Source: Tubiluchus corallicola
Taxonomy: Eukaryota; Animalia; Priapulida
Reading direction: 5' to 3'
Assembly: GCA_030141605.1 (NCBI GenBank)
Contig: JAQGDQ010002437.1
Location: 1 to 37,632, forward strand
Length of the DNA stretch: 37,632 nucleotides
Under the pieces are notes generated by a model. The model saw only the letters and a list, made by a program, of their open reading frames with translations, did not search any database and was not told where the DNA came from. Position 1 is the first letter of the stretch, and the number at the start of each line of letters is the position of its first letter. The translations under genes were made by a program, and so were the position numbers. This document shows, piece after piece, positions 1,361-28,906 of the stretch.

Positions 1361-1391
1361 TTACTTACCGGAAGGCTTCGAAATGTGTCGG
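1361..1391 (-). promoter_or_regulatory. Element promoter-like motif copy 1 (CCGAC-N16-CGGTAAGTAA)
   Basis: + strand TTACTTACCG-16 nt-GTCGG, about 66 bp upstream of the MTase start. Confidence 0.75.
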
Positions 1392-1457
1392 AAAGGCGTC
1401 TGCTTTTTTATGAAGGAATCTTCAAACAACCTATTTTGCTGATTTGTTGGGAATAAT

Positions 1458-1486
1458 TTGACTTCTCTATTATCATCCGTTATCTT
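1458..1486 (+). promoter_or_regulatory. Sigma70-type promoter of the R-M/AbiH cassette
   Basis: TTGACT-17 bp-TATCTT upstream of the 1531 start. Confidence 0.6.
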
Positions 1487-1530
1487 TTAATCTCAAATGT
1501 TAACTTTTAATACAAAGGAGTTTTGCAGAT

Positions 1531-1749
1531 ATGACAGAAAACGACAAATGGCTGACCGTGGAAGAGCTGGCGGCATATCTGAAGATGAGCCGAACCAAGC
1601 TTTATGCCATGACGCAGAAAGGTGAAATTCCGGCGTCGAAGATCAGGAACCAGTGGCGGTTTGACCGGGATGAAATTGACGAGTGGGTGAAGAATCAGAG
1701 GTATACTGCTCAAAAAGAATCTGAGGTCAGTAATGGGTTGTCATCATAA
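1531..1749 (+). CDS. Excisionase-like (HTH_17/MerR-type) DNA-binding protein, possible R-M regulator
   Basis: WLTVEELAAYLKMSRTKLY...GEIPASKI.NQWRF pattern; AAAGGAG RBS. Confidence 0.85.
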   Translation: MTENDKWLTVEELAAYLKMSRTKLYAMTQKGEIPASKIRNQWRFDRDEIDEWVKNQRYTAQKESEVSNGLSS

Positions 1750-1761
1750 AGTGAGGATATT

Positions 1762-3501
1762 ATGTCACATTTAACGCAACCTGCATTATTTGATCTGCTT
1801 GACACATCAGTATTCCCAAGATCAAAAACAGTGGATGAGGCAATAGAATCCTTGGCCTTAAACAGCGGCATAGAGGAAAGAGGTGCTGTTTTTACGCGAC
1901 TTGAAGTTGTTGAATTTATACTTGATCTTGTCGGGTATGTGGAAAACAAGCCTTTACATCGAGAAACTATTCTTGAGCCTTCTTTTGGTGAAGGAGATTT
2001 TCTTCTACCAATAGTCGACCGCTTAATTGCCTCGTGGAAAAAGCATAGTGGGAATTTTTCAAATGTATTCGCTGAATTGAGCGGAGCCATTTGTGGAGTA
2101 GAACTACATAAGGATACATTTGTCAGGACAAAACGGTTAGTTGTTAAGCGTCTTGAAAGTGAGGGAGTGTCAACATCCATCTCTTCTGAGATTGCTGATC
2201 GATGGCTGATACAAGGAGACTTCCTACTTGAACCTCTGAACTTAGATTTTAATTATGTTGTCGGCAATCCGCCTTATGTCCGTCAAGAGCGTATCCCGGC
2301 TCCTTTGCTTGCAGAATATCGTCAGCGCTACAAAACAATGTACGACAGAGCAGACCTTTATATCCCATTTATTGAACGCTCGCTATCGCTTATCGTTGAT
2401 GGGGGAATGTTTTGCTTCATATGTGCTGACAGGTGGATGAAAAACCGTTATGGCGGACCATTACGTGAATATATTGCAGAGGACTTTCATTTAAATGCAT
2501 ATATAGACATGGTTGGTACCGACGCCTTTCACTCAGATGTTAGCGCTTATCCAGCAATCACCGTAATCACCAAAGGAACCGTCGGAAAAACTCGGATAGC
2601 CCATAAACCGAAAGTTAATAGGGAAAGTTTATCAGCTATAGCATCAGATATATGTGCAAAAAACCTTCCTTCAGGTTCTGTCGTTCGCGAAGCAGCTGGT
2701 GTTGTGAAAGGATCGGAACCTTGGCTTCTTGAATCTTCGGACCAATTGTCTCTTGTTCGAAGTATTGAAAATGAATTTCCGACGATTGAGCAGGCAGGCT
2801 GCAAAGTTGGAATAGGTGTAGCTACAGGTTCTGACAAGGCGTTTATTGGCAGTTTTGACTCTCTTGATGTAGAACCTGATCGCAAACTCCCCATGGTCGC
2901 AACTCGTGATATAAAGTCAGGTGAAGTGATATGGAAAGGTCAAGGTGTTATCAATCCGTTTGCCGATGATGGTAGTCTTGTAAAATTGCAGGATTATCCA
3001 AAGCTGGCAAAATATTTTGACGCACGTAGAGAAATAGTGGAGAAGCGTCATTGTGCCAAAAAATCACCGGCAAACTGGTATAGAACAATAGATCGCATCT
3101 GGCCCGACCTGACCAAAAAACCTAAGCTGCTCATCCCTGATATTAAAGGAGAGGCTCATATTGTCTTTGAGCCCGGAGAACTTTATCCCCATCATAACCT
3201 TTACTACATTGTTTCAGACACGTGGGATTTAAGAGCATTACAGGCTGTACTTCTTTCAAATATCGCGAAGCTATTTGTTTCGACTTACTCAACGAAAATG
3301 CGTGGTGGTTACCTACGCTTTCAAGCACAGTATTTACGTCGCATTCGCATCCCATATTGGAAAGACGTTCCAGAAAACCTGAGGCAGGAGCTTATACTTG
3401 CCGCGAATGAAAGAAACGTCGATAACTGCAACAAAGCAGTTTTTAAACTTTACAAATTGAACCAAGAAGAACGATCTGCCCTTGGCGGAAATGGAGAATA
3501 A
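1762..3501 (+). CDS. Type II N6-adenine DNA methyltransferase (Eco57I/TaqI-C class, M.PaeR7I/XhoI-like)
   Basis: Motif [12 protein letters not shown], motif [18 protein letters not shown]; paired with a PaeR7I-like endonuclease. Confidence 0.92.
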
Positions 3502-3503
3502 TA

Positions 3504-4244
3504 ATGGCTATTGATCTTGTTGAATACGAATCAAAAACTCGCGAAGCTATCAAAGGTTTCTGGGGAAGTAGAAGTGCGGCAAAACAAAAACAAAAAGAAT
3601 CTGGTAAATTAGATCAGGGTGAATGCGCAGGTGTTACCGCCGGGAAAAATATGGATGGATTCATCGACTTAATCATCGACATAATTCGTGCAAATGGACT
3701 TGAAGGTGCTGATATTCACCAGAAACGTGCAGTTTTGACGCTTCCAGGTTTTTTCCGACCCACAAAGCTATGGGATCTTTTGGTGATTTATAAGGGCGAG
3801 TTGATTGCTGCAATTGAGCTAAAAAGCCAAGTAGGCCCATCTTTTGGTAACAATTTCAACAACCGAACAGAAGAAGCCATAGGAACTGCACACGATTTGT
3901 GGACAGCTTACCGAGAAGGTGCGTTTGGAAATCAGCCTCGACCCTTTGTCGGTTGGCTGATGTTGGTTGAAGATGCTGACAAATCTCGTTCACCAGTTAG
4001 AGACAGCTCTCCTCATTTTGACGTTTTTGAAGAGTTTAAAGGAGCTTCTTATCTCCAGAGGTATGACCTGTTGTGTCAAAAGCTAACGAAAGAACAGCTT
4101 TATACCACAGCATCAATTCTTGCCTCACCAAGGGGAGCGGCCAAAACTGGTGATTTCTCTGAAATGTCAAAAATGACAGGGATAAAGACCTTTGTTACTT
4201 CCTTGGCTGGTCATATTGCCGCTGAAGCTGCTCGCCTGGATTAG
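3504..4244 (+). CDS. PaeR7I/XhoI-family type II restriction endonuclease (likely CTCGAG)
   Basis: 246 aa; [20 protein letters not shown] and [23 protein letters not shown] motifs typical of the family. Confidence 0.88.
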
Positions 4245-5137
4245 TGATGAGCACATTATATATCATAGGAAATGGCTTTGATTTATGGCATGAGTTGCCG
4301 ACTGGATTCGCGCAGTTTTATGAGTTTGCTAAAGAAACTTTGGATGAGCTTGAGCAATACTTGAATCTTGAATCATCCGATCAAAACTTGTGGAATAATT
4401 TTGAGCGTACTATAGGCAAATATGACTGGAAATCATTTTACGACACTCACAACAACCTCACCCCTCTAGATGACTCCTTTAGACCAAGTATGTGCTTTTG
4501 TCTGGAGGATGATATAACGGAGCAAACCGACAATTTGGTGGGAGAAATAAAGCAACAATTTTTTGATTGGATTGATTCGATTGACTTGGATGCTGCAGCA
4601 AGAAAATTGAAAATAGCTCCCAATTCCAGATTTCTTAGTTTCAACTATACCAACACATTAGAGAAAGTATATGGGGTTGATACATCGTCTATTTTTTACA
4701 TCCACGGAAGCGTCCATGCTTATGATGACTTAGTATTTGGTCACGGCGAGACCATGGTAGAAGAACCAGAAATTGATGAGCATGGCGATAGCAACCGAAC
4801 TATGTTTACTGATTCAGAAAACGCCGCTAAATATCCGTTCTATGCATTTCAAAAACCCGTGAAACAAATCATTGAGAATAATCCGGATTATTTCGATTCT
4901 CTGGAAAACGTCGATACTATCATCGTCATTGGCCATTCACTCAATGACATTGATTTACCGTACTTTCATAGAATTGTAGACACAACCAACGCTCAACGAT
5001 GGATAGTAAGTTATTACAATAATGATGAGACTATATGGCAGACCGATAAACTAAAGAAGTGCGGAATCAATCTCGACACTGTTTACCAATGCCATATAGA
5101 CAATATCAATTCCAGCATTGCCGAAATATTGTTGTAG
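4244..5137 (+). CDS. abiH: AbiH-family abortive infection protein (SIR2-like fold)
   Basis: LYIIGNGFDL, FNYT, IHGS and IGHSLNDIDLPYF motifs; start overlaps the REase stop. Confidence 0.82.
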   Translation: MMSTLYIIGNGFDLWHELPTGFAQFYEFAKETLDELEQYLNLESSDQNLWNNFERTIGKYDWKSFYDTHNNLTPLDDSFRPSMCFCLEDDITEQTDNLVGEIKQQFFDWIDSIDLDAAARKLKIAPNSRFLSFNYTNTLEKVYGVDTSSIFYIHGSVHAYDDLVFGHGETMVEEPEIDEHGDSNRTMFTDSENAAKYPFYAFQKPVKQIIENNPDYFDSLENVDTIIVIGHSLNDIDLPYFHRIVDTTNAQRWIVSYYNNDETIWQTDKLKKCGINLDTVYQCHIDNINSSIAEILL

Positions 5138-5158: not shown

Positions 5159-6022
5159 TCAAATATTTTTCAGTTTGATATCACTCAACACAGGAAGGTT
5201 GGTGCATCTGCAAAATGGATGTGCCGGTTGCCCCGGGAATTTATCAATTGGAAAGGTTTTACCATTGAGAGGCCCACAGACCGGACAGGTCCGCTCGTCA
5301 CCCATGGTCATCCACTCCAGCTTTTCAATTCCGACATGCTGGTGAAACTTGAGTCGCCCCATGTTGTGCGCCCGTAACACCTCAGTTCGGGCGATCATCT
5401 CCATGCGATATTGGGCTTTGCTGAAGACTTTTGTTCCGGCCTGATTGAAGGAATCCTTGTAGATGACAACCCGCCCAAGGTCCCGGACAATGTCATCCGT
5501 ACCTTTCCCTTCTATGATGCCCTGCATGATGACGCGCTTTATGCCGTCGGTCAGTTCCCGATTCACATCACCAGTCAGCGTCAGGTTGTATTGCGTCATG
5601 AAATCAAGGGCGTTGGTATCGACGATAGTGAATACCTTGGTGGCCAGCTTGTCGATACCTCCGGCCTTCAGGTCGGCATAGAAAGGTAGTGACGCCGATG
5701 TCAGTTCGGTAATGCCCTGAGCGATGCCGCCCTTGAACGCGTCCTTGGTACTTTTGCGGAAGACGAGCGTCTGGTCCCGTTTTAATTGGCGCAGAACATC
5801 GTCCAGCTCTCCCTGTAGCTTCTCCAGACCTTTCAAAGCCGCCAGCTTGTTGTCCGGCAGAGATCCCAGACTGCGGTATTTCAAAATGGCCTGAGCCACT
5901 TCCTGTTCAGCCTTGTTGAGGGACTGGGTCAGTTGGGCGGTAATGGAATCGTTGTAGCGGTTACGGGATTTCAGGCTTTTGAGCGTTGCCGCCTGAATGC
6001 GTTCTTTAAGGTCGGAGGGCAT
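5159..6022 (-). CDS. Phage minor head/head morphogenesis protein (SPP1 gp7/MuF family)
   Basis: MIARTE, DERTCPVC and HPFCRC motifs; directly downstream of portal. Confidence 0.85.
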   Translation of the reverse strand: MPSDLKERIQAATLKSLKSRNRYNDSITAQLTQSLNKAEQEVAQAILKYRSLGSLPDNKLAALKGLEKLQGELDDVLRQLKRDQTLVFRKSTKDAFKGGIAQGITELTSASLPFYADLKAGGIDKLATKVFTIVDTNALDFMTQYNLTLTGDVNRELTDGIKRVIMQGIIEGKGTDDIVRDLGRVVIYKDSFNQAGTKVFSKAQYRMEMIARTEVLRAHNMGRLKFHQHVGIEKLEWMTMGDERTCPVCGPLNGKTFPIDKFPGQPAHPFCRCTNLPVLSDIKLKNI

Positions 6023-6024
6023 GG

Positions 6025-7530
6025 TCAGGATTCCCGGCGGTCAATAAATCGGCAGGCCGGGGAATCGAAAGTGCGCTCGGAGTTGTGTACCCGGCAGCGG
6101 TTGGAGTCGGGATTGAAGTGACTGCATTCATCACACAGAGAAGCTGCCGCCGTTGCTTCCAGCTCCTCTGTATAGTGATTGTGTGCCTCGGTATCGAGAT
6201 CATTGCCGTCAGCGGGAATACCGAGCATCTTTCTGGCACTGGGAACACTCATGATTCCAGACACAACCATATCGACTACGGGCTTCACCTGCTTCTCATC
6301 CATCAGGTCAATGTTCTTGCGCTCGGTCTCACGATTTGCGGCTTCGATGTCCGGGTCCAGATCCATCTTGAGCTGCAGGCTGGAACGGCTGATCAGTTTA
6401 CGGTCATACAGCTCGATGAGCAGCTTCTTGAAGTCGACGGCATCACTTGGGTCGAAGTCATTGAAGATGAATTGCAGGGATTTGTCGCTGTGGCCTTTCA
6501 GTTCCATCCAGTCATCGAAGACCCAGTCGAGCAGTTTGCGGGCGGCCTGTTTGATCTCCCGGATCATGACCATCATTTTCTGCATGCTGACGGAGGCCGT
6601 GGCAAAATTGGGGCCGTCGCCGGTTACCAAGGAGCGTGAAAGGCCCAATGCCACCACAATGTCTTCTTTGACCTCCTTGACCTTGTCCTCGACGTTGAGG
6701 ACCTGGCCATCGGTGCCATGGGTTTCCACATTCACATAGAACGGGACCACAAGGCCGCTTTTCATATCCATCTTGTTGACCATGTCGCGGACCTGTTCCA
6801 GCATCCGCTGGTCGGGCATCACCATCTTCTGGCCGAAGGCACCGCCCACTTTGAGCAGGCGGAACGGAGTGGCCCAGCGCTTGGCAATAGCCTGTTCGGC
6901 TCGGCGATAGTCACGCAGCAGTTCGATGGCCTGAAAGGCGGGCAGAACCAGTGAGTTGCCTCTTGGTGAAAAGCCCGGGGCATCCCATTTCAAGTGGATG
7001 ACCTGATCCACCGGAAGGTCGATGGGGTCGCTGGCCGAGCCTGAATCTTCGGCATATTGCTTGGCTTCGATAAGCTCGCCTTGGGCATACTTCACCTTCA
7101 CCGAAACCGGATTGACGCACACCACTTCCTCGATGTCCTGACCGGAAGTTGCGTATCGTTTGAAGCCGACGGCATCGCCTTTGACCAGCAGCTGAAGGAT
7201 CATGTCCTTTATGAACTCCGAGACATCGAGTCTCCATGCGGTGCTGACCGCATCGTCTTTCAGCGTCTCGTCATCGCTGGTGATTTTGATTTCATCCCCG
7301 ACCGCAAAGGTGCGCCATGAATTGACGCAGTTCTTTACCAGCGGTTCTTCGACATAGTATTCCCAAGCCTTTCTGGCTCGCTCTTCCCATGTGGCCGGAA
7401 CCGCGTCCGACGCGTTTACTTTACTGAATGCAGATGCGTCGAGGGCTGCTGCTGCGGCCATGGGCACAATGGCATATCCATTGGATTCGTTGTCAGGCTG
7501 CTCGGTATCTGGCTGGGCGTTTGTATCCAC
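6025..7530 (-). CDS. Phage portal protein with C-terminal Cys/His-rich tail
   Basis: 501 aa between terL and the gp7-like gene; LLVKGDA, VIHLK...PRGNS and IVVALGLSRSLV are portal-like; GTG start with GAGG RBS. Confidence 0.78.
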   Translation of the reverse strand: MDTNAQPDTEQPDNESNGYAIVPMAAAAALDASAFSKVNASDAVPATWEERARKAWEYYVEEPLVKNCVNSWRTFAVGDEIKITSDDETLKDDAVSTAWRLDVSEFIKDMILQLLVKGDAVGFKRYATSGQDIEEVVCVNPVSVKVKYAQGELIEAKQYAEDSGSASDPIDLPVDQVIHLKWDAPGFSPRGNSLVLPAFQAIELLRDYRRAEQAIAKRWATPFRLLKVGGAFGQKMVMPDQRMLEQVRDMVNKMDMKSGLVVPFYVNVETHGTDGQVLNVEDKVKEVKEDIVVALGLSRSLVTGDGPNFATASVSMQKMMVMIREIKQAARKLLDWVFDDWMELKGHSDKSLQFIFNDFDPSDAVDFKKLLIELYDRKLISRSSLQLKMDLDPDIEAANRETERKNIDLMDEKQVKPVVDMVVSGIMSVPSARKMLGIPADGNDLDTEAHNHYTEELEATAAASLCDECSHFNPDSNRCRVHNSERTFDSPACRFIDRRES

Positions 7531-7605
7531 GTAATCCTCTCGGGTTATTTCCGGTTTAACGGCCGCACATCTCCCCGCTGTGGGGCGATCACGGCAACAC
7601 TGGGG

Positions 7606-7636
7606 TTACTTACCGGAGGGAGAGGAAAAACGTCGG
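7606..7636 (-). promoter_or_regulatory. Element promoter-like motif copy 2
   Basis: TTACTTACCG-16 nt-GTCGG in the terL-portal intergenic region. Confidence 0.75.
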
Positions 7637-7645
7637 AAAGGCGGG

Positions 7646-9172
7646 TTAAATAAAGACCGGCTCTGTCAGAACAGGTTTGAGCCAAACGGTCTCTTCCCCG
7701 GCAAGGTCGAGGTTGCCTTGCTCCCGAATGAGCATGGCACAGCGAACCGCGTCGATGATGTGGTCGTTGCCTTTGGAGTAGATAATCTTACCGTCCCGCA
7801 GGGTGTAAGTCTGGGTGGTGAACTGGTCTTCAATTTCCAGATCGTCTGACGGGAAGATGATCTGTTTGCGCTGGAGGGCACCGTTGATCAAGCTGGTCAT
7901 CAGTTCCTTTGTCCGCTTTTTAATTTCCTTGCCGTCGCGGATGGTGAGCCGGGTCATGCCGCCGAAGTCAAAACCTTTCAGTCGGCCTTCAAGTTCCAGC
8001 TCTTTGTATTTGTCGAGGGTCAATAGTTCCTGCACTACGGTCAGACCGTTGCCGCCATTATCCACGCCGATTCCAGCCGGAGTGAAATAACGTTCGAGCA
8101 GTGCGATGGTCTGGGCAATATGCGGATACGATACATGCTCCATGTGAAGGCGCAGCACCAGTTTCAGGAGACTGCGATCACCCACCTCGGCTTCCTGAAA
8201 GATAACCAGCTCGGTCGGGTCGTTTGTATATCCAAGGTCACCGCCAATCCAGAACAGTCCGGTTCGGGGCGTCAGGTTAAGCAGTAGTTCAAGCCGGTCA
8301 TAGGCGGCTTCCTCCGTTTCACAATCGCGCAGCTCGGTATCGGTAATGGTGACCTTCTGATACTCCAGCAATTCCTGACGGCAGAGATTGAACTGCTCCA
8401 CGTTGAACGTCCCGTAGGAAGGCTTTCCGTGTTCCCCGGCAACTTCATGCTGCCAGCCCGAGGTATCTTTGCCACCGTAGAACTCCAGCAGCTCCGACTC
8501 CCGTTCAGCGGTCCAGAACGGATTGAGCCACGATGCCCAGCGGAACACCCTGAACTGTTCCGACATGGTCAGTCGATAGTAGGTAGTGTTTCGCAGGCCG
8601 TTGGGCGTGGAATAGATTTTCAGACGGCCGCCTGTTTTCAGGCATTGTCTGAGAGCCTTCCATGCGCGTTCGGAAAGCCACGCTCCTTCATCCACCCAGA
8701 TCCGGCCGACATGAAGCGAGCGGAAAGCATCGCCATAGGCACCGGCCGGGCGGAAATAAAGAACCGATCCATTGGTAAACTCCAAACGGAAATACGGCTT
8801 CCGGGTGATTTTCGGTTTGCCATATTTCGAGAGTGCAATGCTGTTCATCAAGTCTTCATTGTGATCCAGCTGGTACTCGATTTCCTCGATGACCGTGTCG
8901 AGATGTCCCTGATGAGGAGCGGCAATCAATCCCTGTCCGCCGCGAGTCGTGAAGGCATAGTGCAGTGCATCCGTCGAAAGCACGATCGACTTGCCAACGT
9001 CACGGCCATCGAGGTGGATGATGTTTTTATGGGAGCAGCGGAGATCTTCCTTCTGATGGTCCCAATACGATCGTGCCGAACCGTCCCGGTTGTAGAGATA
9101 TGCTTGTCCCCACAAAACCGGGTCACGGAGAGTTTCGGCCAGCCTGCGCTCCTTATCAGAGACACCCATCAA
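7646..9172 (-). CDS. terL: Terminase large subunit
   Basis: Walker A GRDVGKS, Walker B IWVDEG, YSTP coupling motif, RNase H-like GGDLG...GVDNGG...DHIIDA. Confidence 0.9.
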   Translation of the reverse strand: MMGVSDKERRLAETLRDPVLWGQAYLYNRDGSARSYWDHQKEDLRCSHKNIIHLDGRDVGKSIVLSTDALHYAFTTRGGQGLIAAPHQGHLDTVIEEIEYQLDHNEDLMNSIALSKYGKPKITRKPYFRLEFTNGSVLYFRPAGAYGDAFRSLHVGRIWVDEGAWLSERAWKALRQCLKTGGRLKIYSTPNGLRNTTYYRLTMSEQFRVFRWASWLNPFWTAERESELLEFYGGKDTSGWQHEVAGEHGKPSYGTFNVEQFNLCRQELLEYQKVTITDTELRDCETEEAAYDRLELLLNLTPRTGLFWIGGDLGYTNDPTELVIFQEAEVGDRSLLKLVLRLHMEHVSYPHIAQTIALLERYFTPAGIGVDNGGNGLTVVQELLTLDKYKELELEGRLKGFDFGGMTRLTIRDGKEIKKRTKELMTSLINGALQRKQIIFPSDDLEIEDQFTTQTYTLRDGKIIYSKGNDHIIDAVRCAMLIREQGNLDLAGEETVWLKPVLTEPVFI

Positions 9173-19472: not shown

Positions 19473-21691
19473 AATGCCCCCGCACAAGCTGACTGCTCTT
19501 CAAGGCAATTCACATTGTTCAAGAGAATGGATAGAAAGGTCTTGCGGTCGTCCACCTGACATTTCTTGGCGCAATTGCGGATGCCCCAGCGGTCACCCAG
19601 CACAATCGCCGTCTTGCGGGCACGGGTAACACCGGTGTACAGCAGATTACGATGATGCATGAAGGAATGAGCCTTGTGGACCACCACGACAGCGCAGGGA
19701 AATTCCGACCCTTGGGTTTTGTGGATTGTCAGCGTATATGCCAGCTGAATGTCCTGAAGGTTCGGTGAGCCTTTTTCGATCTCAACCGCCACACCCTCGA
19801 AATCAATCAACAGCGTGCCGTTGGGCAACACATCGACCACATGACCGATGGCACCGTTCATTACGTTCAGGTCATAGTTGTTGTGGGTCTGAATGACCTT
19901 GTCGTGTTTCAAAAATGGCGACCGGCGGCCGGGTTGTGTTTCCGGAACATTCACATTCCAGAGGCGCTTCTGGATAAGCCGCTGCAGGTCTTCATTGAGT
20001 GATTTGGTTCCCAGCGGCCCCTTGTGCGTCGGAGTCAACACCTGCACGTCCTTGATCAGATCAAAGCCAAGGGCATCCAATCGTTTGTCAAAGAGGTCCA
20101 GCAGGAAATTGCGGGCTGCACCCGGATCGGTGAACTGATCCGCCAGATACCAGTCCCGGCATCCCTGTGTGCTTGCATCACTGGTCTTTCTGACTTCTCC
20201 CTTGAGAATAGCGGTGCTGTTTTCCTTCAGCACACCGGCCTGCCTGACCACCTTATCCAGAATGACCGTGGGGATGTCATTGGAGTGGATCAAGTCCCGA
20301 AGGATATTTCCCGGACCGACCGGCGGCAGCTGGTTGTGGTCTCCCACAATGACAATAGCCGTTCTAGCAAAGTCGACCGCATTGAAAAGGTGCCACGCCA
20401 ACGGAACATCCACCATGGAAAATTCATCGATGATCAGCATGTCGGCATCGATGGGATTATTGCTGTCCTTGGAAAAGGACTTGCCGTCATAGCCAAGCAG
20501 GCGATGGATGGTGGTTCCGGTGCGACCGCTCACTTCCTCGAGTCTCTTGGCCGCTTTGCCTGTCGGCGCGGACAACACCACCTCCAGATCGCACTCTTCA
20601 CATACCGTGTTGATGACCGATACGGTGTAGCTCTTACCCGATCCGGCTCCACCGGAGATCAGGCTGATGGAGTGCTGCAACGCAGAGTGAACCGCTTCGA
20701 GCTGCTTTTCGTTGAGCGTTTCCGCCTGACGAAGAATTAGCTTCTGCAGATTGCGGGTCGATTTGAAATGAGGGTTCGAGGCATCCGCCTTGGTGAAAAT
20801 GGCAGCGATGTCCTGTTCCATTTTCAGGATATCGGAAAGCGCCACCAGAAAACGTCCCGCGTGTGACTCACAGGAGAGCAGTCTTTCGCTGATCAGGTTG
20901 TCCAGCGATGCTTCGATACGGATGCGGCTGTCCAGATTATCCATCACCAAAAGCAGGTTGGCCTGATCAACAAGGTCCTCGTATTCGACCCAGCAGTTTC
21001 CCTGATCCAGTGCCTCGTGCATACAGTACTGGATACCGGCACGGATTCTTGGTGTGTGGTCTTTGGGCGTGCCCAGTTTGCGGGCAATCTTGTCGACTTT
21101 CTTGAAGCCGAATCCACGCAGTTCCCGGATGAGGATGTAAGGATCGGCTTTAAGGATTTCCAGACAGTTACCGCCCAGCTTATCGACCAGCGTTGTTACC
21201 TGATGGTGGGTCAATCCAAAGGCGGAGAGCCATGCCAGGACGGCATTGACGCTGCGGTTTTTACACCATTCATCCTTCAGACGATTAGCGGCATCGAGGG
21301 AAATTCTGGCTTTTGATGCGATGAGCTCCGGGGATTCAATCAGAGTTTCCTCGAATGAATCGCCGAACTCTTCAACGATAAGGCGGGCTTTGGCTGGACC
21401 AATCCCTTTGATGTCCGGGTGATTGGCCAGATAGTGAATCAATCCTTCCGGGTTCAGATCAAGATCGTGCTCCATGGCATCGACCTTGAACTGACGACCA
21501 TATTTCGGATGGGTGGCCCACGTCCCCAAAAGGACCACGGGCTGATTTTCACGGGCAAAGAGGTTTCCGGCAAACTGGATTTCCTCTCCGGTGGCGGTGA
21601 GCAAACGGCCTGCTGAAAACTTTGGCCCGGCATAATAAACTCTCTCTATTCTTCCCCGGAGTTTTGCCGGGGAGTTTGTTTTTCTTGGCAT
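19469..21691 (-). CDS. recD2: RecD2-like SF1B DNA helicase
   Basis: HhH IKGIGP, GGAGSGKS, IIDEFSM, VGDHNQLPPVGPG, TIHKTQGSEF, LLYTGVTRA. Confidence 0.92.
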   Translation of the reverse strand: MPRKTNSPAKLRGRIERVYYAGPKFSAGRLLTATGEEIQFAGNLFARENQPVVLLGTWATHPKYGRQFKVDAMEHDLDLNPEGLIHYLANHPDIKGIGPAKARLIVEEFGDSFEETLIESPELIASKARISLDAANRLKDEWCKNRSVNAVLAWLSAFGLTHHQVTTLVDKLGGNCLEILKADPYILIRELRGFGFKKVDKIARKLGTPKDHTPRIRAGIQYCMHEALDQGNCWVEYEDLVDQANLLLVMDNLDSRIRIEASLDNLISERLLSCESHAGRFLVALSDILKMEQDIAAIFTKADASNPHFKSTRNLQKLILRQAETLNEKQLEAVHSALQHSISLISGGAGSGKSYTVSVINTVCEECDLEVVLSAPTGKAAKRLEEVSGRTGTTIHRLLGYDGKSFSKDSNNPIDADMLIIDEFSMVDVPLAWHLFNAVDFARTAIVIVGDHNQLPPVGPGNILRDLIHSNDIPTVILDKVVRQAGVLKENSTAILKGEVRKTSDASTQGCRDWYLADQFTDPGAARNFLLDLFDKRLDALGFDLIKDVQVLTPTHKGPLGTKSLNEDLQRLIQKRLWNVNVPETQPGRRSPFLKHDKVIQTHNNYDLNVMNGAIGHVVDVLPNGTLLIDFEGVAVEIEKGSPNLQDIQLAYTLTIHKTQGSEFPCAVVVVHKAHSFMHHRNLLYTGVTRARKTAIVLGDRWGIRNCAKKCQVDDRKTFLSILLNNVNCLEEQSACAGAL

Positions 21692-22128
21692 TGAGCGAAC
21701 CTCCGGTGAAAGCGCATTAAAAACTCTTCAACAAACCGGCAGGCTGCCTGACGGTCTGAACAGAAATAAACGGGCACACCGAAGTCGATGATGATGGAGG
21801 CAATGGTTCCTATGAGGGCGTTTGGATGGGCGTCGCTCTGGTAGCAGGCACCGAGAATATCCCGGTAATTGGCCTCAACGACGACACAGGCCGCGTCATA
21901 ATGCCGGAGCTTTTCCAGCTCCTTGTGAAAACGCTTTCGGCCTCGGATGACAGTGGAAACAAAATCCGCCATGGACTTCCTTTCCACCGCCACCCGGGTC
22001 TCGAATCCCTCGATGGAGTAATCTCCCGCCGGGAGGGCCTTGCGGACTGATACGACTGATTCCGAATCAAATCCGTAAGGCTCCTGTTCCCGGGTATCAA
22101 CGACAACGGTAACCATGCCCATCCTCAA
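21646..22128 (-). CDS. ERCC4 (XPF/Mus81-like) domain nuclease
   Basis: VVVDTREQ, GDYS and VERKSMAD motifs. Confidence 0.88.
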   Translation of the reverse strand: MRMGMVTVVVDTREQEPYGFDSESVVSVRKALPAGDYSIEGFETRVAVERKSMADFVSTVIRGRKRFHKELEKLRHYDAACVVVEANYRDILGACYQSDAHPNALIGTIASIIIDFGVPVYFCSDRQAACRFVEEFLMRFHRRFAQCQEKQTPRQNSGEE

Positions 22129-23006
22129 AACGGAATCATGTCGTCTACATCGTGACCGGCCGACGGTGCTGCGGCATCTTCATCCGAAAGCACAATCCGG
22201 CGGTTAAAGTAGATGTTCTCGAATTCGTTCTTCGTGCGCTTGGTCACCTCGAGCCCGACATCCAGAAGGGTTTCCAGTTTGCCCGGGAGGTCAGAGAGCT
22301 TGTCCATCTGCAGGCCGCAGGTATAGAGATCCTGCTTGAGCCATTTCACATTGTCCTTGCTGGCAATGACGTTGTTACGCCACAGCAGACGGCCTTTGTG
22401 CGTGGGACCCAGAATCTTCAGCGCCCACTTGAGCATGGGCTTGCCGTCATCACCGGTTTTCATGTCCAGATCACAGAACAGGATCAGGTCCACCAGACCG
22501 GTGACCAGCTTACGGGCCTTGTCCGGTAGGGTCGGCACAATGCGAGTGTGCTTTCCAGTGCGTGTCTCAATGTCACGCTCGTGGGAATGGGAAATGAGGA
22601 TCAGGCCGTAAGGCAGAAAGGCCAGTTTGTTGAGAACGCGCTGAAACTCATTGTTGATGAGGGCATAGCCTTTTCCATAGCCAAGGTCGGACTCGTGCTC
22701 GATCTTGAACTTCTTGCAGACATAATCCGCACACATGCGGTAGGCGTTATCCACCGTGTCGATGACGATGGTCTTGAAGTCGTGTTTGCCTTCGGCAATC
22801 TCGGCACACGCCTGCAGAAGGTCGTCCCAGCAGGTAATGGGCGCTTCGAACACTTCGAGGGCGTTCAGGCCCGGTTCCGTGGCTAGAAACAGGGCGTTTT
22901 CCGCGTGGGAGCACCAAGTGCTCTTGCCAATTTTGCTCGGACCATAAACCAGTGCGGTCAGGTCGTTCAGGGTTGCTTTCGGTTTGGTTTTGCTTTTCGG
23001 AAGCAT
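22125..23006 (-). CDS. AAA_24/Sak4-like ATPase fused to a DUF669/SSB-like C-terminus
   Basis: YGPSKIGKST, TIVIDT, GYGKG, LISH, then GKPMLKWALKIL...GRLLW...DDMIPF acidic SSB-type tail. Confidence 0.78.
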   Translation of the reverse strand: MLPKSKTKPKATLNDLTALVYGPSKIGKSTWCSHAENALFLATEPGLNALEVFEAPITCWDDLLQACAEIAEGKHDFKTIVIDTVDNAYRMCADYVCKKFKIEHESDLGYGKGYALINNEFQRVLNKLAFLPYGLILISHSHERDIETRTGKHTRIVPTLPDKARKLVTGLVDLILFCDLDMKTGDDGKPMLKWALKILGPTHKGRLLWRNNVIASKDNVKWLKQDLYTCGLQMDKLSDLPGKLETLLDVGLEVTKRTKNEFENIYFNRRIVLSDEDAAAPSAGHDVDDMIPF

Positions 23007-23031
23007 GATTTATCTCCTTGTATGGTTTGGG

Positions 23032-24048
23032 TTAAAAAACAGGGGCAGCATCTTCACTTGCTCCATCCCGCAGCTCTTCGTGCGGGATCACCCGTTGGTA
23101 ATGGTTTTCAATGACGTTGGGGTTCTCACCGCTCCGGCACAGCGGGAAGTAGGGACAGGCGCGTCCATACTGAAAACAGAAGGCCGTATTGCGGTAGAAG
23201 GTGTTGCGGCGGCGGGCATCCAGCATGGCTTTGGATAGTTCCCAAAGCTCACTGCGAAGCTCGTCGAATTGATCGCGGGAGATGTAGAGCAGCTCCCGGT
23301 GAAACATGCCGGTCTCGAGGTATTTGTCTTTGAGGCGCTGCTGGAAGGCATCATCCGGCTCGGGCATCTTGCGCTTGGCGCTGCTCTTGCCGGTTTTGGA
23401 TTTGGCGATCAGCTCGGCACGGCGGGTTTCAAACTCAGCTTCCGTTTCGCCTTTGCTCTGGCGCAGCTTTGCTTTGACCAGCACGTTGTAGATGATGCCG
23501 GAAATACGGATGCCGAGGGTCTGTTCCAGATACCACGCATAAATGATGATCTGAAAATCAGTCCAAAGCCGTTCCAGATAACCGGCATCGATTTGTGAGG
23601 CGGTCTTGTGCTCCAGCAGGAAGTATTGACCATCCTGTTGGACCAAACCGTCCACCTTGCCAGCCAGCACGAAACTCCTCGATGCGGCGTTGGTATCCGG
23701 ATTGACGATGGGACCTTCGAAGGTCTTCTCCAAAGCAACCACGTCAAAATCCTCGACGGGATACTGCTCCGAGTATGAACTCATCATCGCAGTGGCCAGA
23801 TGCCAGTCCGCGAGCTGATGGTCATCCTGTGCCCGGTTGGCATAGACCTGATCGATGTGTTCGAGAACCTTTTCGAGCTCCCGCTGGCCATGCCAGATTT
23901 CAAGGCAGTCGTGAATGACTGATCCGAAAGCCAGGTTGTGATCCCGCTCCAGAGGAACAAGGTCCCTCAGGTAGCGGTATTCACAAGCCTTGCGGCAATT
24001 GCGGAAGAGCCGCCACATGGAATACGTGGTGGTCATCAATTCGCTCAT
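23032..24048 (-). CDS. PD-(D/E)XK (RecB/Cas4-like) exonuclease
   Basis: FGSVIH, GKVDGL, LLEHKT, Q...Y motifs and N-/C-terminal Cys (CRKAC; CFQYGRACPYFPLC); start 24048 by ATGA overlap. Confidence 0.82.
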   Translation of the reverse strand: MSELMTTTYSMWRLFRNCRKACEYRYLRDLVPLERDHNLAFGSVIHDCLEIWHGQRELEKVLEHIDQVYANRAQDDHQLADWHLATAMMSSYSEQYPVEDFDVVALEKTFEGPIVNPDTNAASRSFVLAGKVDGLVQQDGQYFLLEHKTASQIDAGYLERLWTDFQIIIYAWYLEQTLGIRISGIIYNVLVKAKLRQSKGETEAEFETRRAELIAKSKTGKSSAKRKMPEPDDAFQQRLKDKYLETGMFHRELLYISRDQFDELRSELWELSKAMLDARRRNTFYRNTAFCFQYGRACPYFPLCRSGENPNVIENHYQRVIPHEELRDGASEDAAPVF

Positions 24049-24365
24049 ACCGCGACCTCCATTGCTGAAGGTGCTTTTGCATTGCAGGCGCATCCGCCAC
24101 CGGCGGGTTCACGGTCGATCATGACCGCACGCTCGCCGTATTCCTTGGTGGCGAATCCGGTAAAGATGCTCGCCAGATCACCGCCGACTTTGGTCGCGGC
24201 ATCGATCTGACAGGTGCGATTTTGTTTATCCAGATTGAAGCGGGATTCCATCCTCACTCTGGAGTGTCCATACATGCTTTCCACAGCCAGCAACGCCAGC
24301 ATAAAGGTGTCTTCCAAGTCCTGAGCCGGGACCGACTGATCAAAGCGATACTTGTAAGTTTCCAT
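24045..24365 (-). CDS. Hypothetical protein
   Basis: 106 aa; AGGAG RBS; first gene after a motif copy. Confidence 0.75.
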   Translation of the reverse strand: METYKYRFDQSVPAQDLEDTFMLALLAVESMYGHSRVRMESRFNLDKQNRTCQIDAATKVGGDLASIFTGFATKEYGERAVMIDREPAGGGCACNAKAPSAMEVAV

Positions 24366-24438: not shown

Positions 24439-24469
24439 TTACTTACCGGAACTCCGGGTGATGCGTCGG
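24439..24469 (-). promoter_or_regulatory. Element promoter-like motif copy 5
   Basis: TTACTTACCG-16 nt-GTCGG right after the sigma gene stop, upstream of the replication operon. Confidence 0.75.
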
Positions 24470-24473: not shown

Positions 24474-25058
24474 TCACAGGTATTCTTCCAATCCGCCATC
24501 CCGGAAAGCGTCCCTCAGTTTGGTCAGTGTTCCGTAGAGAGTGCTGCGCGGCACACCCATCTCCCGTGCAATTTCAGCCATGTTGCTCGATTGCAGTTTT
24601 TCGCATAGCTCCTGCAGATCTTCCGGCAGTCCAGCAATGACCCGGTCGACATCGAAGCGGATATCGTTTTGCCGTTGCTCGATGGTTTCCTTGTTGTGGT
24701 GTCCCATCAACCCATCACTGGAAACCTGTTCGATACGCTCTGCTGAATCGTTGTCCCCGCCCGGAATAGGGTCATTGAGAGTGTTAAAGCATTTGCGCCA
24801 GTCTCTGCATTGAGCGAAGCGGGCTTCAAGAATGGTTGAAATCCGCCGCTCCACGATGCGGGTCATGAAGGTTGTTTTCTTCCCTTTGGCAGGGTTGAAG
24901 TGCTTCATTCTGCCCAACAGGTCGATCATTAGTTCCTGCTCAAGATCTTGCCGATCGTCTTCTGTCAGTCCTGCTTTACCCACCAGTTGCCTTGCTTTGT
25001 GCCGAATAAGATCTGCGGCATACCCATCGATGCCTTCATAAGAATTTCGATAAAACAT
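24474..25058 (-). CDS. Element-encoded sigma-70/ECF-like RNA polymerase sigma factor
   Basis: Region 2-like DRQDLEQEL...FNPAKG...TFMTRIV; region 4-like LPEDLQEL...MAEIAREMGVPRSTLY; GAGGAGG RBS. Confidence 0.78.
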   Translation of the reverse strand: MFYRNSYEGIDGYAADLIRHKARQLVGKAGLTEDDRQDLEQELMIDLLGRMKHFNPAKGKKTTFMTRIVERRISTILEARFAQCRDWRKCFNTLNDPIPGGDNDSAERIEQVSSDGLMGHHNKETIEQRQNDIRFDVDRVIAGLPEDLQELCEKLQSSNMAEIAREMGVPRSTLYGTLTKLRDAFRDGGLEEYL

Positions 25059-25062: not shown

Positions 25063-25250
25063 TCCTCCTCGGAGCGAGGAGGAGCACCGCGTGGGTGTCG
25101 GCACGGGCCGTAAACAGAGGAAGGAACTGATCCAACAAGCGGAGCGTCGCAGGTTCGCCTTTTCTGCCACCTGCCGTGCTGATAAACACACGGTCAGGTT
25201 TGGCTCGGCGACACCCACAACAGCCTCCGCCTTGCGTCCAGCTTGTTGTC
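25063..25250 (-). promoter_or_regulatory. Structured 5' leader of the sigma gene
   Basis: 9-bp stem TCCTCCTCG/CGAGGAGGA (25063-25083) covering the RBS; 10-bp inverted repeat 25091-25100/25209-25218; 39-nt segment shared with 28791-28829. Confidence 0.6.
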
Positions 25251-25273: not shown

Positions 25274-25600
25274 TTATGCTGCCCGTTCCTCGATGCGGAT
25301 CAGGAATGGCAGCCCATGCTTGATTTCAAGATGACGGATGATTCCGTCGCCCATGCCGGTCAGGTGCTCGAGTAGAGCGAGCACCTCCTGCTTTAGGGTG
25401 AAGTCATCCTTCTCGGATTCAGGCCGGGTTCCATTTTGGCCGCCCAGTTTGATTTCACGCTCGATGATGGTGTCTGCGGTGAGTTCGGGATTTCCGCCCA
25501 CAACCGGTATGTTGGAAATGCGCCCGAAGTTGATTTGCTGCATCAGCTCGATGAGCTTTTGCTGCGGTTCGTTTAGTTCTGTCTTCTTGATCTGGTTCAT
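25274..25600 (-). CDS. Hypothetical protein
   Basis: 108 aa; AAGGAGG RBS. Confidence 0.75.
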   Translation of the reverse strand: MNQIKKTELNEPQQKLIELMQQINFGRISNIPVVGGNPELTADTIIEREIKLGGQNGTRPESEKDDFTLKQEVLALLEHLTGMGDGIIRHLEIKHGLPFLIRIEERAA

Positions 25601-25870: not shown

Positions 25871-25896
25871 AAAAAAAGCCGACACGAAGGTCGGCT
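25871..25896 (-). terminator. Intrinsic terminator of the serine recombinase operon
   Basis: AGCCGAC/GTCGGCT stem followed by a T-run on the minus strand. Confidence 0.75.
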
Positions 25897-25923: not shown

Positions 25924-26343
25924 TCAGCTGAATCCAAAGAATGTTCGCTGCTCACTCCAGTCGAGCGGGAATGTTTTCACCAGCTTTGAGAGGGATAATC
26001 CGCTGGGCTCTTCACCGTTAATGATGGCTTCGACAATGTCCGGCGCGAGCGTGGTCAGTTTCAGGGTTCTGGCGACGTAGGATGAGTCCACATCGAGATC
26101 CCTTGCCAGCTCGCTGATGGACCTGATCTCACCACTCTCGAGGATGTCCGCCCATGAAAAGGCTCTGGCCAGCGACTGGACAATGGCCGTCTGAACCGTT
26201 TCCGGCATGCCCTCATTTTCACCATCCAGCGTATCCGGCGTGAACACCATTTTGCGGCCGCGCATTCTCCGGATGAACATGGGGATATGGATGTGTAGGT
26301 TCCCGCTGTCTGATAGTTTGATGGTTGGTTTGATCTTTTTCAT
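25924..26343 (-). CDS. HTH-containing accessory protein of the serine recombinase module
   Basis: LARAFSW...SISELARDLDVDSSYVARTLKLTTLAPDIVEAI pattern; coupled to the recombinase stop. Confidence 0.75.
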   Translation of the reverse strand: MKKIKPTIKLSDSGNLHIHIPMFIRRMRGRKMVFTPDTLDGENEGMPETVQTAIVQSLARAFSWADILESGEIRSISELARDLDVDSSYVARTLKLTTLAPDIVEAIINGEEPSGLSLSKLVKTFPLDWSEQRTFFGFS

Positions 26344-27926
26344 CAGCTGTTACTCCTTTCCCTGACTTCACAAGCCAGACCGGCCAGCTCGGTGACAAGG
26401 TTTGTGAGGCCGTTGGTTTTCAGTTCCATGTCGATTCCTGTTTCCCGTATCTCGATGGTTTCCACCAAAAGCTGAATAAGTCGGTTACGTTCGAGGGGAA
26501 ACAGATCCTCCCAGAAGGTTTCCACGCTCTGGAATGCCTCGGAAACATCTCCCTCTGAAATCTGATCGGTATCAATCACCTTCAACCGAGCCGATACGTT
26601 GGTGAGCTGTTTGGTCAGATCGACGGCCTGCTGATTGACCAAGGGCAGTCGGCTGTTCCGGTCGGGATCGTCGTTGTCGGGCGACATCAGCTTCAGGGCT
26701 TCCTGCCTGACGCTTTGCAGAGATTGTCCAAGTTCCTTTTTCTGGACCTCCAGGCGGTGCTGCTCTTCGGCCTCGATCTCTCTGGCGGCAAAGTAGGTCT
26801 TGGCCACCAAGGTCGGCGTTCTGAATACCGCTCCCAGCTGATCAAGCACCACCGACTCGATGTCTCCTGCAGGAACCCGCTTCAAGGGGCATCGACTGAC
26901 GGCACGTTTAGTATCCTTTTCACATATATAATAGGAGTAGCGCCGATCGCCTTTGTTGGTATAGGTGATACCCATGGCGCTGTCGCAGTGGCCGCACCGG
27001 ATCACTCCGCTCAGGGGCGAGACCATTTTCACTCGGGCCTTGCTCATCTTGGTTCGATTGTTTTCCGAGAGCAGCGCCTGAACCTTGTCCCAAGTATTCT
27101 GATCGATCAGGGCTTCATGCTCAGCCGGATAGTTTTTGCCTTTGTAAGCAATCTCTCCGATGTAAAGCCTGTTATTGAGAAGGCGGTAGACCTGAGCCGT
27201 GTTCCATTCAGTACCGACCCGTTCTTTTCCTTTCTTGGTGGTCCATGACTTAGTTTTGTATCCCTGTTCGTTGAGTTCCTGCGCCACCTTTTTGGCTGAT
27301 CCCACCTGCGTGTATCGCCTGAATATGAGTTTTATCAGTGGGGCTTCACTCTGGTTGATCAGCAGCTTTTTGTTTTCACGGTCAACGTCATAACCAAGAA
27401 CCGCAGGTCCGCCGCAGTATTTACCTCGGCGTTTTGCGGCGGCCACCTTGTCCCGGATACGTTCGCCTATGACCTCACGCTCATACTGAGCAAAGGTGAT
27501 CAGGATGCCCAGAAACATGCGGCCTGTCGGATCAGTGGTGCTGAAGTGTTGCGTGACGGATACAAAGCTCACTTCCTTTTCGTTGAAGACCTCGATCATC
27601 TTCATGAAGTCCAGCAGGGAGCGGGACAATCGGTCGATCTTGTACACAACGATGACATCGATCTTACCGGCATCGATATCAGCCAGCAGTCTTTGCAGGG
27701 CCGGACGTTCCATGGTCCCGCCAGAAAATCCGCCATCGTCATAGCGATATGGAATGGCTCTCCAGCCTTGAAGCTTCTGGCTCTCTATATACGCCTCACC
27801 AGCTTCTCTTTGGGCATCGAGTGAATTGAATTCCTGTTCCAAGCCTTCTTCGTGGCTCTTTCTGGTGTAGATCGCACACCTAAGCGTTTTACGTTGACCG
27901 TTCTGTGTATTGGTATTGTTAAGCAT
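26343..27926 (-). CDS. Large serine recombinase (resolvase + recombinase + Zn ribbon)
   Basis: CAIYTRKS, SLDAQ, DDGGFSG, RPALQRL, KIDRLSRS, CGHC...YYIC...C; ATG 27926 with RBS. Confidence 0.93.
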   Translation of the reverse strand: MLNNTNTQNGQRKTLRCAIYTRKSHEEGLEQEFNSLDAQREAGEAYIESQKLQGWRAIPYRYDDGGFSGGTMERPALQRLLADIDAGKIDVIVVYKIDRLSRSLLDFMKMIEVFNEKEVSFVSVTQHFSTTDPTGRMFLGILITFAQYEREVIGERIRDKVAAAKRRGKYCGGPAVLGYDVDRENKKLLINQSEAPLIKLIFRRYTQVGSAKKVAQELNEQGYKTKSWTTKKGKERVGTEWNTAQVYRLLNNRLYIGEIAYKGKNYPAEHEALIDQNTWDKVQALLSENNRTKMSKARVKMVSPLSGVIRCGHCDSAMGITYTNKGDRRYSYYICEKDTKRAVSRCPLKRVPAGDIESVVLDQLGAVFRTPTLVAKTYFAAREIEAEEQHRLEVQKKELGQSLQSVRQEALKLMSPDNDDPDRNSRLPLVNQQAVDLTKQLTNVSARLKVIDTDQISEGDVSEAFQSVETFWEDLFPLERNRLIQLLVETIEIRETGIDMELKTNGLTNLVTELAGLACEVRERSNS

Positions 27927-28425
27927 TCGGACCACCTTCCTTTTTTCTGTAACTGTTCTTCAGGCCGAAAAAGATCTTGCCGTTCCAGCGGGTGCCTGTG
28001 ATTTCCCTCGCTATGGCGCTCAGTGATCTGAAGATGCGGCCGTCGTACTCAAAGCCACTTTCCCGGGCGATCACTTCATAGCGCTTGTCGTTCCAGATCC
28101 GGGCAAACCGGGTGCCCGGCAGGATGGCTTCCTGTGATTTTCGTTCTTCCGGAATCTTGCGGATGACCGTTGCCACCGGATCGGTCTCGGCAACTTTCTT
28201 CAGGTGGGATTTGGCCTGCTCCGACAGGCCGCCGTAAAAGAGCTCCTGAATCCTGTGCGCCAGCCGTTTAACCAGAAACTGCTTCTTGTACTGGGGTGGC
28301 TCGGTTCCATAAAGGTCCAGCCATTTCTCTCTGAGCTGATCAAGGCTCATGTTCTGGAGCGTTGCCAATTGCCTCAACACCGAGGTCTTGGTCGGCTCCG
28401 TTTTTTTGTTTTTCAAGTCATTCAT
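27919..28425 (-). CDS. DUF2924-like protein
   Basis: LREKWLDLYG, LAHRIQELFYGGLS, PGTRFARIW, SLSAIAREITGTRWNG; AAGGAG RBS favours ATG 28425. Confidence 0.82.
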   Translation of the reverse strand: MNDLKNKKTEPTKTSVLRQLATLQNMSLDQLREKWLDLYGTEPPQYKKQFLVKRLAHRIQELFYGGLSEQAKSHLKKVAETDPVATVIRKIPEERKSQEAILPGTRFARIWNDKRYEVIARESGFEYDGRIFRSLSAIAREITGTRWNGKIFFGLKNSYRKKEGGPNA

Positions 28426-28466
28426 TTTCAACTCCTTATATTCGATTACAGGACTCGGTTGTCATG

Positions 28467-28497
28467 AATGACGCTCTTTCCGGAAGAAGAATCAAGT
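28467..28497 (-). promoter_or_regulatory. Recombinase-operon motif ACTTGATT-N14-AGCGTCATT, copy B
   Basis: Reverse complement matches both blocks and spacing of 9772-9802. Confidence 0.6.
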
Positions 28498-28709
28498 CAT
28501 TCTCCGAAGGTTCCGGAAGAATCTGCAACATTCTTTAAGTTGTTGGCATTATTGGCCTTACGATATCGACTCCTGAGTGCGGCAATGGCCAGAATGGCCG
28601 CAATGGCATCCAGCCTCTGCTCCGGGTTAATGCCTTCAGCATCCGGCAATTTGGTGTCGGTCAACTGGTTTGAGTAAGGGTTTTCAGGTGCTAATTCCAC
28701 ATCAAGCAT
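28497..28709 (-). CDS. Small hypothetical protein
   Basis: ATG 28709 with GGAGG RBS; helical PEQRLDAIAAILAIAALR core. Confidence 0.6.
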   Translation of the reverse strand: MLDVELAPENPYSNQLTDTKLPDAEGINPEQRLDAIAAILAIAALRSRYRKANNANNLKNVADSSGTFGE

Positions 28710-28755
28710 AAGGGCCTCCGTTGGGCTGGTGCCGATGAGGGAAGCTGCGGGTGCC

Positions 28756-28805
28756 AAAAACAAAAGGCGGTTGGGATGCGCGTTTTTCAGCACCCACAAC
28801 CGCCT
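28756..28805 (-). terminator. Attenuator-like intrinsic terminator in the leader downstream of motif copy 6
   Basis: Minus strand AGGCGGTTG...CAACCGCCT followed by TTTGTTTTT. Confidence 0.65.
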
Positions 28806-28875
28806 CTGCCTGGCATCCGGCCAATTGTCTGGTTTCTAACTCATGTCCGAAGCGAACCCTCGGAACTTTCGGAGG

Positions 28876-28906
28876 TTACTTACCGGGAGTGATTTCAATC
28901 TGTCGG
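28876..28906 (-). promoter_or_regulatory. Element promoter-like motif copy 6
   Basis: TTACTTACCG-16 nt-GTCGG, back to back with the lexA-like promoter. Confidence 0.72.

Follow-up and report, generated by a model that had tools for sequence, protein, structure and literature searches.

Oriented promoter-like motifs in a prophage of a Tubiluchus corallicola contig and the small phage sigma factor that probably reads them

The stretch of DNA analyzed here, contig JAQGDQ010002437.1 of the Tubiluchus corallicola assembly GCA_030141605.1 (37,632 nucleotides (nt), hereafter the window), carries the half of an integrated phage that comprises its early and packaging genes, with lexA, DUF2924, serine recombinase, sigma factor, replication, terminase, portal, MuF and late methyltransferase genes. 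Six copies of a two-block motif are distributed across this prophage, and these copies are probably promoters that are read by host RNA polymerase carrying the prophage's own sigma factor of 194 amino acids (aa). The original prediction was that this factor drives the replication, packaging and head genes through the motif. Placement, orientation, spacing, a predicted start-site signature, co-occurrence and covariation all support this proposal, and the predicted regulon is wider than was claimed, because in the closest genome (G001) the motif is found at tail and baseplate operons as well.

Exact matches to the pattern TTACWTACCG-N16-GTCGG occur at positions 1361, 7606, 12997, 14089, 24439 and 28876, all on the plus strand; on the minus strand the six copies read CCGAC-N16-CGGTAWGTAA. 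Chance yields no such matches (mean 0.00 and maximum 0 over 100 shuffles of the window), and the six coordinates, the single orientation and the fixed 16-nt gap all stand as first described. No further copy was found in the window when one or two mismatches were allowed at spacers of 14 to 18. The copies are arranged as follows.

1361 to 1391, minus strand: motif copy heading a late D12-class adenine methyltransferase gene (ATG at 1294, continuing past the window end); predicted +1 at 1355.
7606 to 7636, minus strand: motif copy between the terminase large subunit and portal genes; predicted +1 at 7600.
12997 to 13027, minus strand: motif copy that overlaps the stop codon of a 91-aa Mor-like gene and stands ahead of the 12908 gene and terminase block; predicted +1 at 12991.
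14089 to 14119, minus strand: motif copy heading the genes for a 262-aa protein and the Mor-like protein; predicted +1 at 14083.
24439 to 24469, minus strand: motif copy 5 nt past the sigma stop codon, heading the replication operon and kept at this position family-wide; predicted +1 at 24433.
28876 to 28906, minus strand: motif copy at the head of the DUF2924/serine recombinase arm, facing away from the neighboring lexA promoter; predicted +1 at 28870.

Every copy does lie upstream of a minus-strand gene, as had been noted, and each of these genes has a Shine-Dalgarno-like site. The predicted 5′ leaders, in site order from 1361 to 28876, are 61, 70, 83, 33, 68 and 161 nt long. The spacers had been described as largely unrelated, which holds in that they differ between copies but fails at certain positions: among 131 de-duplicated sites, a purine at position 6, a T-rich tract at positions 8 to 10 and YTC at positions 19 to 21 are conserved inside the spacer. 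The refined consensus is CCGACR-N12-YTC-CGGTADGTAW. Rfam has no family matching the motif copies or their leaders. The name 'TerS-like' previously given to the gene at 12372 to 12908 proved to be purely positional, with no Pfam, NCBIfam or PHROG family matched. The plus-strand restriction-modification (R-M), fic and lexA genes were correctly said to have sigma70-like promoters instead: TTGACA-17-TATATT at 14600 for fic, TTGACC-17-TATATT at 28928 for lexA and, read by eye, TTGACT-17-TATCTT at about 1458 ahead of the helix-turn-helix (HTH)/R-M block.

The positions of the copies resemble those of promoters well beyond the window. The same operon heads carry the motif in 11 related elements, and in these relatives and the window together 89 of 98 sites lie no more than 700 nt upstream of a co-oriented reference gene. 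The site turns with the recombinase arm where this is inverted (G012, G017) and with the sigma/replication arm where that is inverted (G036). One copy is located within the 3′ end of the tape-measure coding sequence in G001, and is kept in G012 and G016. Spacing is rigid: in a comparison of 37 sigma clusters, 61 matches were found at the canonical spacer, and no other spacer from 10 to 25 had more than 6.

A start-like signature is found at a fixed distance from the motif. At positions that were not used in choosing the sites, purines are present in 38 of the 131 sites at position 36, and then in 105, 111 and 107 of the 131 at positions 37, 38 and 39, respectively. This pyrimidine-purine step, 6 nt downstream of the motif, is present across site classes. 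Transcription would thus be predicted to start 6 nt past the motif, with position 37 as +1, and in this register the conserved letters become C-36 C G A C-32 R-31 and C-16 C-15 G-14 G-13 T-12 A-11 N-10 G-9 T-8 A-7 W-6. The corresponding element of Mycobacterium tuberculosis sigma-L, as given in the portion of PMC6372665 consulted, has been solved as T-12 G-11 N-10 C/A-9 A-8 G-7, and that source proposes the last helix of region 2 as the reader of the bases just upstream. Positions -12, -11, -9, -8 and -7 are therefore specified in both systems, and -10 is free in both.

The proposed reader of the motif and its immediate surroundings are as follows.

24474 to 25058, minus strand: sigma70-family factor, 194 aa, with the size of an extracytoplasmic function (ECF) sigma, region 2 and a region 4 HTH; proposed motif reader.
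25274 to 25600, minus strand: 108-aa gene with no known family (Pfam, NCBIfam, PHROG), usually directly upstream of the sigma gene.
25877 to 25896, minus strand: terminator-like hairpin (consensus match only) that separates the recombinase operon from the 108-aa/sigma genes.

The sigma protein matches Pfam Sigma70_r2 (E 1.9e-6, 28 bits against a cut-off of 24) and TIGR02937 (48 bits against a cut-off of 42.9), and its PHROG match is 1740. Its predicted model consists of a region 2 bundle, a low-confidence linker and region 4 helices at residues 146 to 187, so that the 194-aa model has two helical domains and no region 3, as in ECF (group 4) sigmas. Residues 7 to 80 superimpose on sigma70 region 2 with Z 8.3 and a root-mean-square deviation (rmsd) of 2.0 over 69 aligned residues, and comparison with sigmaE region 4 gives the modest score of Z 6.5 (rmsd 2.6, 65 aligned). 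The sigma profile also aligns to AlgU/RpoE region 4. The core-binding residues D35, D38, Q41 and E42 of region 2.2 are kept and align to DAEDLTQE of M. tuberculosis SigE. A Foldseek search with the model returned nothing at E <= 0.001, and the 48 rows listed are all sigma factors or polymerase complexes by title.

No motif copy lies directly upstream of the 108-aa/sigma genes, either in the window or in the related elements compared. Because there is no motif ahead of its gene and a terminator-like hairpin stands in front, this sigma factor is not a classic self-activating ECF sigma. The LexA-type palindrome is conserved at the lexA promoter and not ahead of the sigma operon. A LexA box does lie ahead of this operon at 25622, but G001 alone keeps it, and we do not claim direct LexA control of the sigma operon. 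Read-through would be possible in several relatives, where lexA and the sigma gene are co-directional; this is not the arrangement in the window.

Across related phages, phage WO included, motif letters covary with residues of the sigma factor that are predicted to read DNA. A set of 307 loci provided 295 full-length sigma homologues with downstream DNA, which form 121 clusters at 70% identity, and 86 clusters with a site at offset 0 to 23 and with T-12, A-11 and T-8 were kept. Sampling had been widened to this extent because a first, smaller set showed the residue-78 switch in one clade only. Alignments A2 to A4 were too divergent for the locus search, and those clades are sampled only via A5 to A7. 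Base -15 follows residue 78 of helix 2.4 closely: Arg78 occurs with G in 43 clusters and with another base in 3, whereas other residues occur with G in 1 cluster and with other bases in 39. This agreement in 82 of 86 clusters compares with a maximum of 76 for tree-simulated traits (0 of 3000 reach 82). The tree, from which column 78 was excluded, calls for 9 and 10 changes in the two traits and for 12 when they are taken jointly. Independent pairs drawn on all branches average 6.8 that change in the same way, 0 in opposite ways and 2.2 tied.

The association extends to sites far from the sigma gene, where C is found at -15 in 91 of 92 sites from Glu78 elements and G in 8 of 9 sites from Arg78 elements. 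Moreover, the best partners of -9, -13, -15 and -16 are residues 67, 71, 78 and 82, which are spaced like one face of the region 2.4 helix, and the best partners of -32 and -33 are residues 171 and 175 in region 4.2. Y175 falls at the position of RpoE Arg171 in the alignment to AlgU, and this arginine sets a -35 base according to the part of Todor et al. (10.1101/2020.06.23.168245) consulted. The treekit strict test, for which five pairs were tried, gave no clear signal for Y175/A-33 or R67/G-9.

The motif is confined to elements of this kind. In G001 all 10 copies share one orientation and lie within a single 48-kb prophage, with none elsewhere in 4.3 Mb at one mismatch. Forty genomes chosen for a sigma homologue contain 383 matches to a relaxed pattern, as opposed to 15 for a reversed control. 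Among 301 genomes drawn from the phylum of G001, the three with the sigma gene hold 10, 14 and 10 matches and the other 298 hold 0 to 4; some of the matches in these sigma-free genomes look like true copies on short contigs. At 157 of 160 sigma homologue loci (39-98% identity) the motif follows the sigma end, and the three misses are contig ends. In the converse test, 20 larger viral records were obtained from 166 motif loci, of which 6 have the sigma gene and 14 do not. Twelve of these 14 are fragments, 20-68% complete, with 2 to 8 sites.

Sigma homologues are widespread: a sample of 401 genomes from the G007 phylum has them in 41, and they occur in records labeled as belonging to 13 phyla (77 of 80 records are labeled, and many are metagenome-assembled genomes). 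The family comprises 960 clusters at 50% identity with E <= 1e-30. Loci L005, L006, L007, L008 and L011 carry sigma genes 91-97% identical to that of the window and are labeled Thermodesulfobacteriota, Gammaproteobacteria and Phycisphaerae, a scatter of labels that reflects either cross-phylum spread or binning error. Smaller elements (G059:C1 2.84-2.90 Mb; G343, G361, G363) carry the same sigma and motif module with only three sites; primase and terminase/portal set both differ in L195, the example inspected. G359 (L144) carries, besides its first sigma gene, a more divergent one with a variant site behind it, CGGAC-17-GCATAAGTAA.

Several observations weigh against assigning the motif to the sigma factor. 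All 17 holders recorded as RNA, in a run search with relative L119, are assembled contigs, a format without starts, strand or level; the case is built on sequence. Most loci were picked by their sigma gene, so the presence of sigma is built into them. The complete record G378 and the 51% complete record G370 each have one site and no sigma gene, the second sigma genes of G358 and G369 are not followed by a site, and G020, G025 and G028 lack a site ahead of some operons. A site profile with -16 and -15 masked scored at least 12 in just 58 of the 121 clusters (and in 0 of 295 reverse-strand controls), and 35 of the 121 were dropped before the covariation count because they had no site meeting the offset and core rule. 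For residue 78, the treekit strict test retains only 2 pairs on well-supported branches (p 0.5), and the Arg78 elements behind the distant-site count may be one clade. Some best partners are off-domain, with -36 pairing with residue 66 and -14 with residue 170, and the highest covariation score of all (+2 with D38) was rejected as an invariant-column artefact. Finally, fold scores are modest (best Foldseek E 1.1e-3; VIA Z 9.0).

Among other explanations for the motif, the one that survives best, though we consider it improbable, is that the phage protein is an activator, or needs a phage co-factor such as its 108-aa neighbor, instead of acting alone as a sigma factor. The gene for this neighbor is directly upstream of the sigma gene in most elements, phiEco32 gp36 is stimulated by gp79 (PMC8948821, in the part consulted), and region 4 is divergent, with no Sigma70_r4 match among the five Pfam families listed. 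However, the 108-aa gene was not detected in G017, G349 and G354, where the motif persists, region 2.2 retains the residues of the SigE DAEDLxQE stretch noted above, and both DNA blocks covary with the domains that a sigma factor would use. A predicted complex of the two proteins, computed without alignments, scored 0.00 and favors neither reading.

We regard as very unlikely a second possibility, in which the motif is the site of the Mor/CD3324-like activator (12997-13272) working with host sigma70. In its favor are a match of this gene to PHROG 836, 'late transcriptional activator' (E 3.5e-5), and the occurrence of the gene in the large myovirus-like elements, but the CheckV-complete G343, G361 and G363 and the small elements of G059 have no Mor-like match and yet hold three motif copies each. 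Covariation with sigma residue 78 would also be left unexplained by a Mor-like reader.

The motif could in principle be an oriented repressor site for the LexA-like protein that silences the lytic operons, in the manner of the stoperators of mycobacteriophage L5, since the copies are many, asymmetric, intergenic and oriented with transcription. This arrangement is more doubtful still: the lexA promoter carries a different palindrome, CCT-N10-AGG (in the window, G001, G012, G354 and L119), and G017 (with 9 sites), G343 and G361 keep the motif with no lexA match, although other repressor types were not searched for. A start-like purine step at fixed distance is likewise not expected of a roadblock. 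Equally hard to credit is a non-transcriptional role, whether in recombination or module exchange or as a signal for RNA processing. Copies do lie at module borders, often adjoining accessory genes (R-M/AbiH, fic), but their spacers vary, they lack dyad symmetry, one lies inside the tape-measure gene, and motif letters covary with the predicted DNA-reading helix of the sigma factor. The Mor-like, LexA, 108-aa and 106-aa genes (the last with no match in five records that keep the motif) each drop out while the motif stays, and therefore the sigma factor is favored as its reader.

If the sigma factor is the reader, then once made it would join host core polymerase and direct about ten separate starts, leading to expression of the recombinase, replication, packaging, head and, in complete relatives, tail operons. 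Lysogeny and defense genes would stay on sigma70 promoters. Region 4.2 (residues about 171 to 176) would read CCGACR at -36 to -31, and the last helix of region 2 (residues 67 to 82) would read CCGG-TA-N-GTA at -16 to -7, with Glu78 matched to C-15 and Arg78 to G-15. We infer from sequence both promoter function and a system that would be orthogonal to host transcription.

The other features of the window that bear on this scheme are listed here.

16170 to 24365, minus strand: replication/recombination operon (106-aa gene, PD-(D/E)XK, AAA_24/DUF669, ERCC4, RecD2, primase); putative target.
25924 to 28709, minus strand: recombinase arm (small open reading frame (ORF), DUF2924, large serine recombinase, 139-aa gene); putative target.
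5159 to 9172, minus strand: terminase large subunit, portal and MuF head genes; putative targets.
12997 to 14050, minus strand: 262-aa gene and 91-aa Mor/CD3324-like HTH gene (12997-13272); putative targets.
28928 to 29636, plus strand: lexA-like repressor gene, with sigma70-like promoter at 28928-28956 and palindrome GACCT-N10-AGGTC at 28930-28949.
32725 to 32800, minus strand: tRNA-Ala(GGC) at the edge of the element, the likely integration site.

The closest genome, G001, holds a complete version of this prophage that is 91-95% identical to the window element and also has sheath-, tube-, tape-measure- and baseplate-like genes, named from ORF translations and gene order. The G001 element adjoins a tmRNA gene whose 3′ end resembles that of the tRNA-Ala(GGC) gene in the window. 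Comparison of S18 with solved structures did not place the host. MuF is 287 aa long in the window (5159-6022) and 1523 aa long in G001, a shortening that may mean the window prophage is defective. Where G001 has the remainder of MuF and a 196-aa gene, the window has an HTH gene, an Eco57I-type methylase, an XhoI-like nuclease and AbiH (1531-5137), and the late methyltransferase at 2 to 1294 (minus strand) corresponds to the start of an 809-aa ORF in G001. Besides the serine recombinase, there is a tyrosine integrase-family gene (10440-11345, plus strand) between the 12908 gene and the terminase genes. At 14131 to 14444, immediately past the primase operon, ten copies of CTTTCTACR or its complement have the look of an iteron-type replication origin. 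The leader after the 28876 site (about 28791-28806) and the leader before the sigma gene (about 25212-25227) share, on the minus strand, the sequence AGGCKGTTGTGGGTGY. This sequence (AGGCKGTTGTGGGTGY) is also present in G001, G012, G019, G028 and G036 and is possibly an RNA control element, for which Rfam has no match.

A tblastn search of 50,697 GenBank phage records matched the sigma factor only to Wolbachia phage WO (7 records, 23-26% identity). The WO homologue is the sigma-70 family protein gwv_1123 (KX522565.1), which is followed by replication genes. This record contains three copies of TGGAC-N16/17-GTGTATATAT, one of which defined the pattern, against a chance expectation of 0.01 (mean of Markov simulations). 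One copy is located after the sigma gene, another ahead of a minus-strand block leading into the tail genes, and the third near the right end, from where it points towards the packaging genes if the genome circularizes. WO differs from the window family in that its motif is AT-rich and drifted and its sites number three rather than ten. The WO sigma has Arg at the residue-78 position and its motif has G at -15. No paper assigning promoters to this protein was found in the literature listings searched. With three exact candidate promoters in WO, activation of its lytic genes becomes directly testable.

We put forward only tentatively the wider view that a very large undescribed family of temperate phages, with 960 clusters, hosts labeled in 13 phyla and WO as a distant member, runs its whole lytic program, recombinase through tail, off one small sigma factor by means of a residue-to-base code. 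If true, nature would hold many sigma/promoter pairs of this type, these phages would be independent of host promoter rules across phyla, and the lytic switch of WO would be named. The sigma factor and its motif provide a concrete, testable candidate switch for a widespread prophage group with almost no isolated members, and the motif is a 16-letter marker by which such prophages, and the starts of their operons, can be found. With the E78/C and R78/G pairs that occur in nature, the ECF specificity code would also cover the extended -10 position, one that the sigma-L structure did not resolve (in the part of PMC6372665 consulted). These pairs are also candidate orthogonal parts for synthetic circuits.

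A phage sigma factor with private promoters is an old concept; no paper on this family or its motif was found in the literature searched, which includes few subscription papers. In the case of PBSX Xpf, T4 gp55 and SPO1 gp28/gp34, host polymerase is turned to phage promoters by a sigma or sigma-like factor that the phage encodes, and as far as is known each serves one temporal class or few promoters. The factor described here resembles ECF (group 4) sigmas in having regions 2 and 4 only and about 190 aa, and in being paired with a two-block element of rigid spacing that presumably functions as a promoter. It departs from them in having no recognized anti-sigma gene (no sigma neighbor matches a known family in Pfam, NCBIfam or PHROG) and in having a conserved site just downstream of the sigma gene and none upstream. 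In addition, its -35 block is CCGAC in place of the ECF GGAAC, and PRSTLY forms its region 4.2 helix. According to the part of PMC7826278 consulted, phage sigmas were not captured by the ECF classification, and the part of its supplementary material examined contains no such motif.

In its proposed way of working, the system is like sigma regulons of other mobile elements. Salmonella phage 7-11 gp47, as described in the portion of PMC8948821 consulted, is likewise a phage sigma factor that works with host core polymerase at several phage promoters. Its consensus, GTAAtg-16-aCTA, also has two blocks 16 bp apart, with transcription starting 6-9 bp from the element, but its letters differ from those found here. 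The same source assigns late or middle/late genes only to 7-11 gp47 and phiEco32 gp36, whereas here the recombinase and replication operons are headed by the motif as well, and the phage is integrated, unlike those two. No 7-11- or phiEco32-type phage was matched in the tblastn search of phage records, and no direct sequence comparison with gp47 was made. Another counterpart is SigN (ZpdN) of Bacillus subtilis pBS32, which, in the part of PMC6751061 consulted, is likewise an ECF-like factor on a mobile element, with a link to LexA and with replication genes in its local regulon. Unlike the factor described here, SigN activates its own gene, and the promoters of SigN largely avoid the phage structural region; in the prophage family described here, the motif heads structural operons and not the sigma gene.

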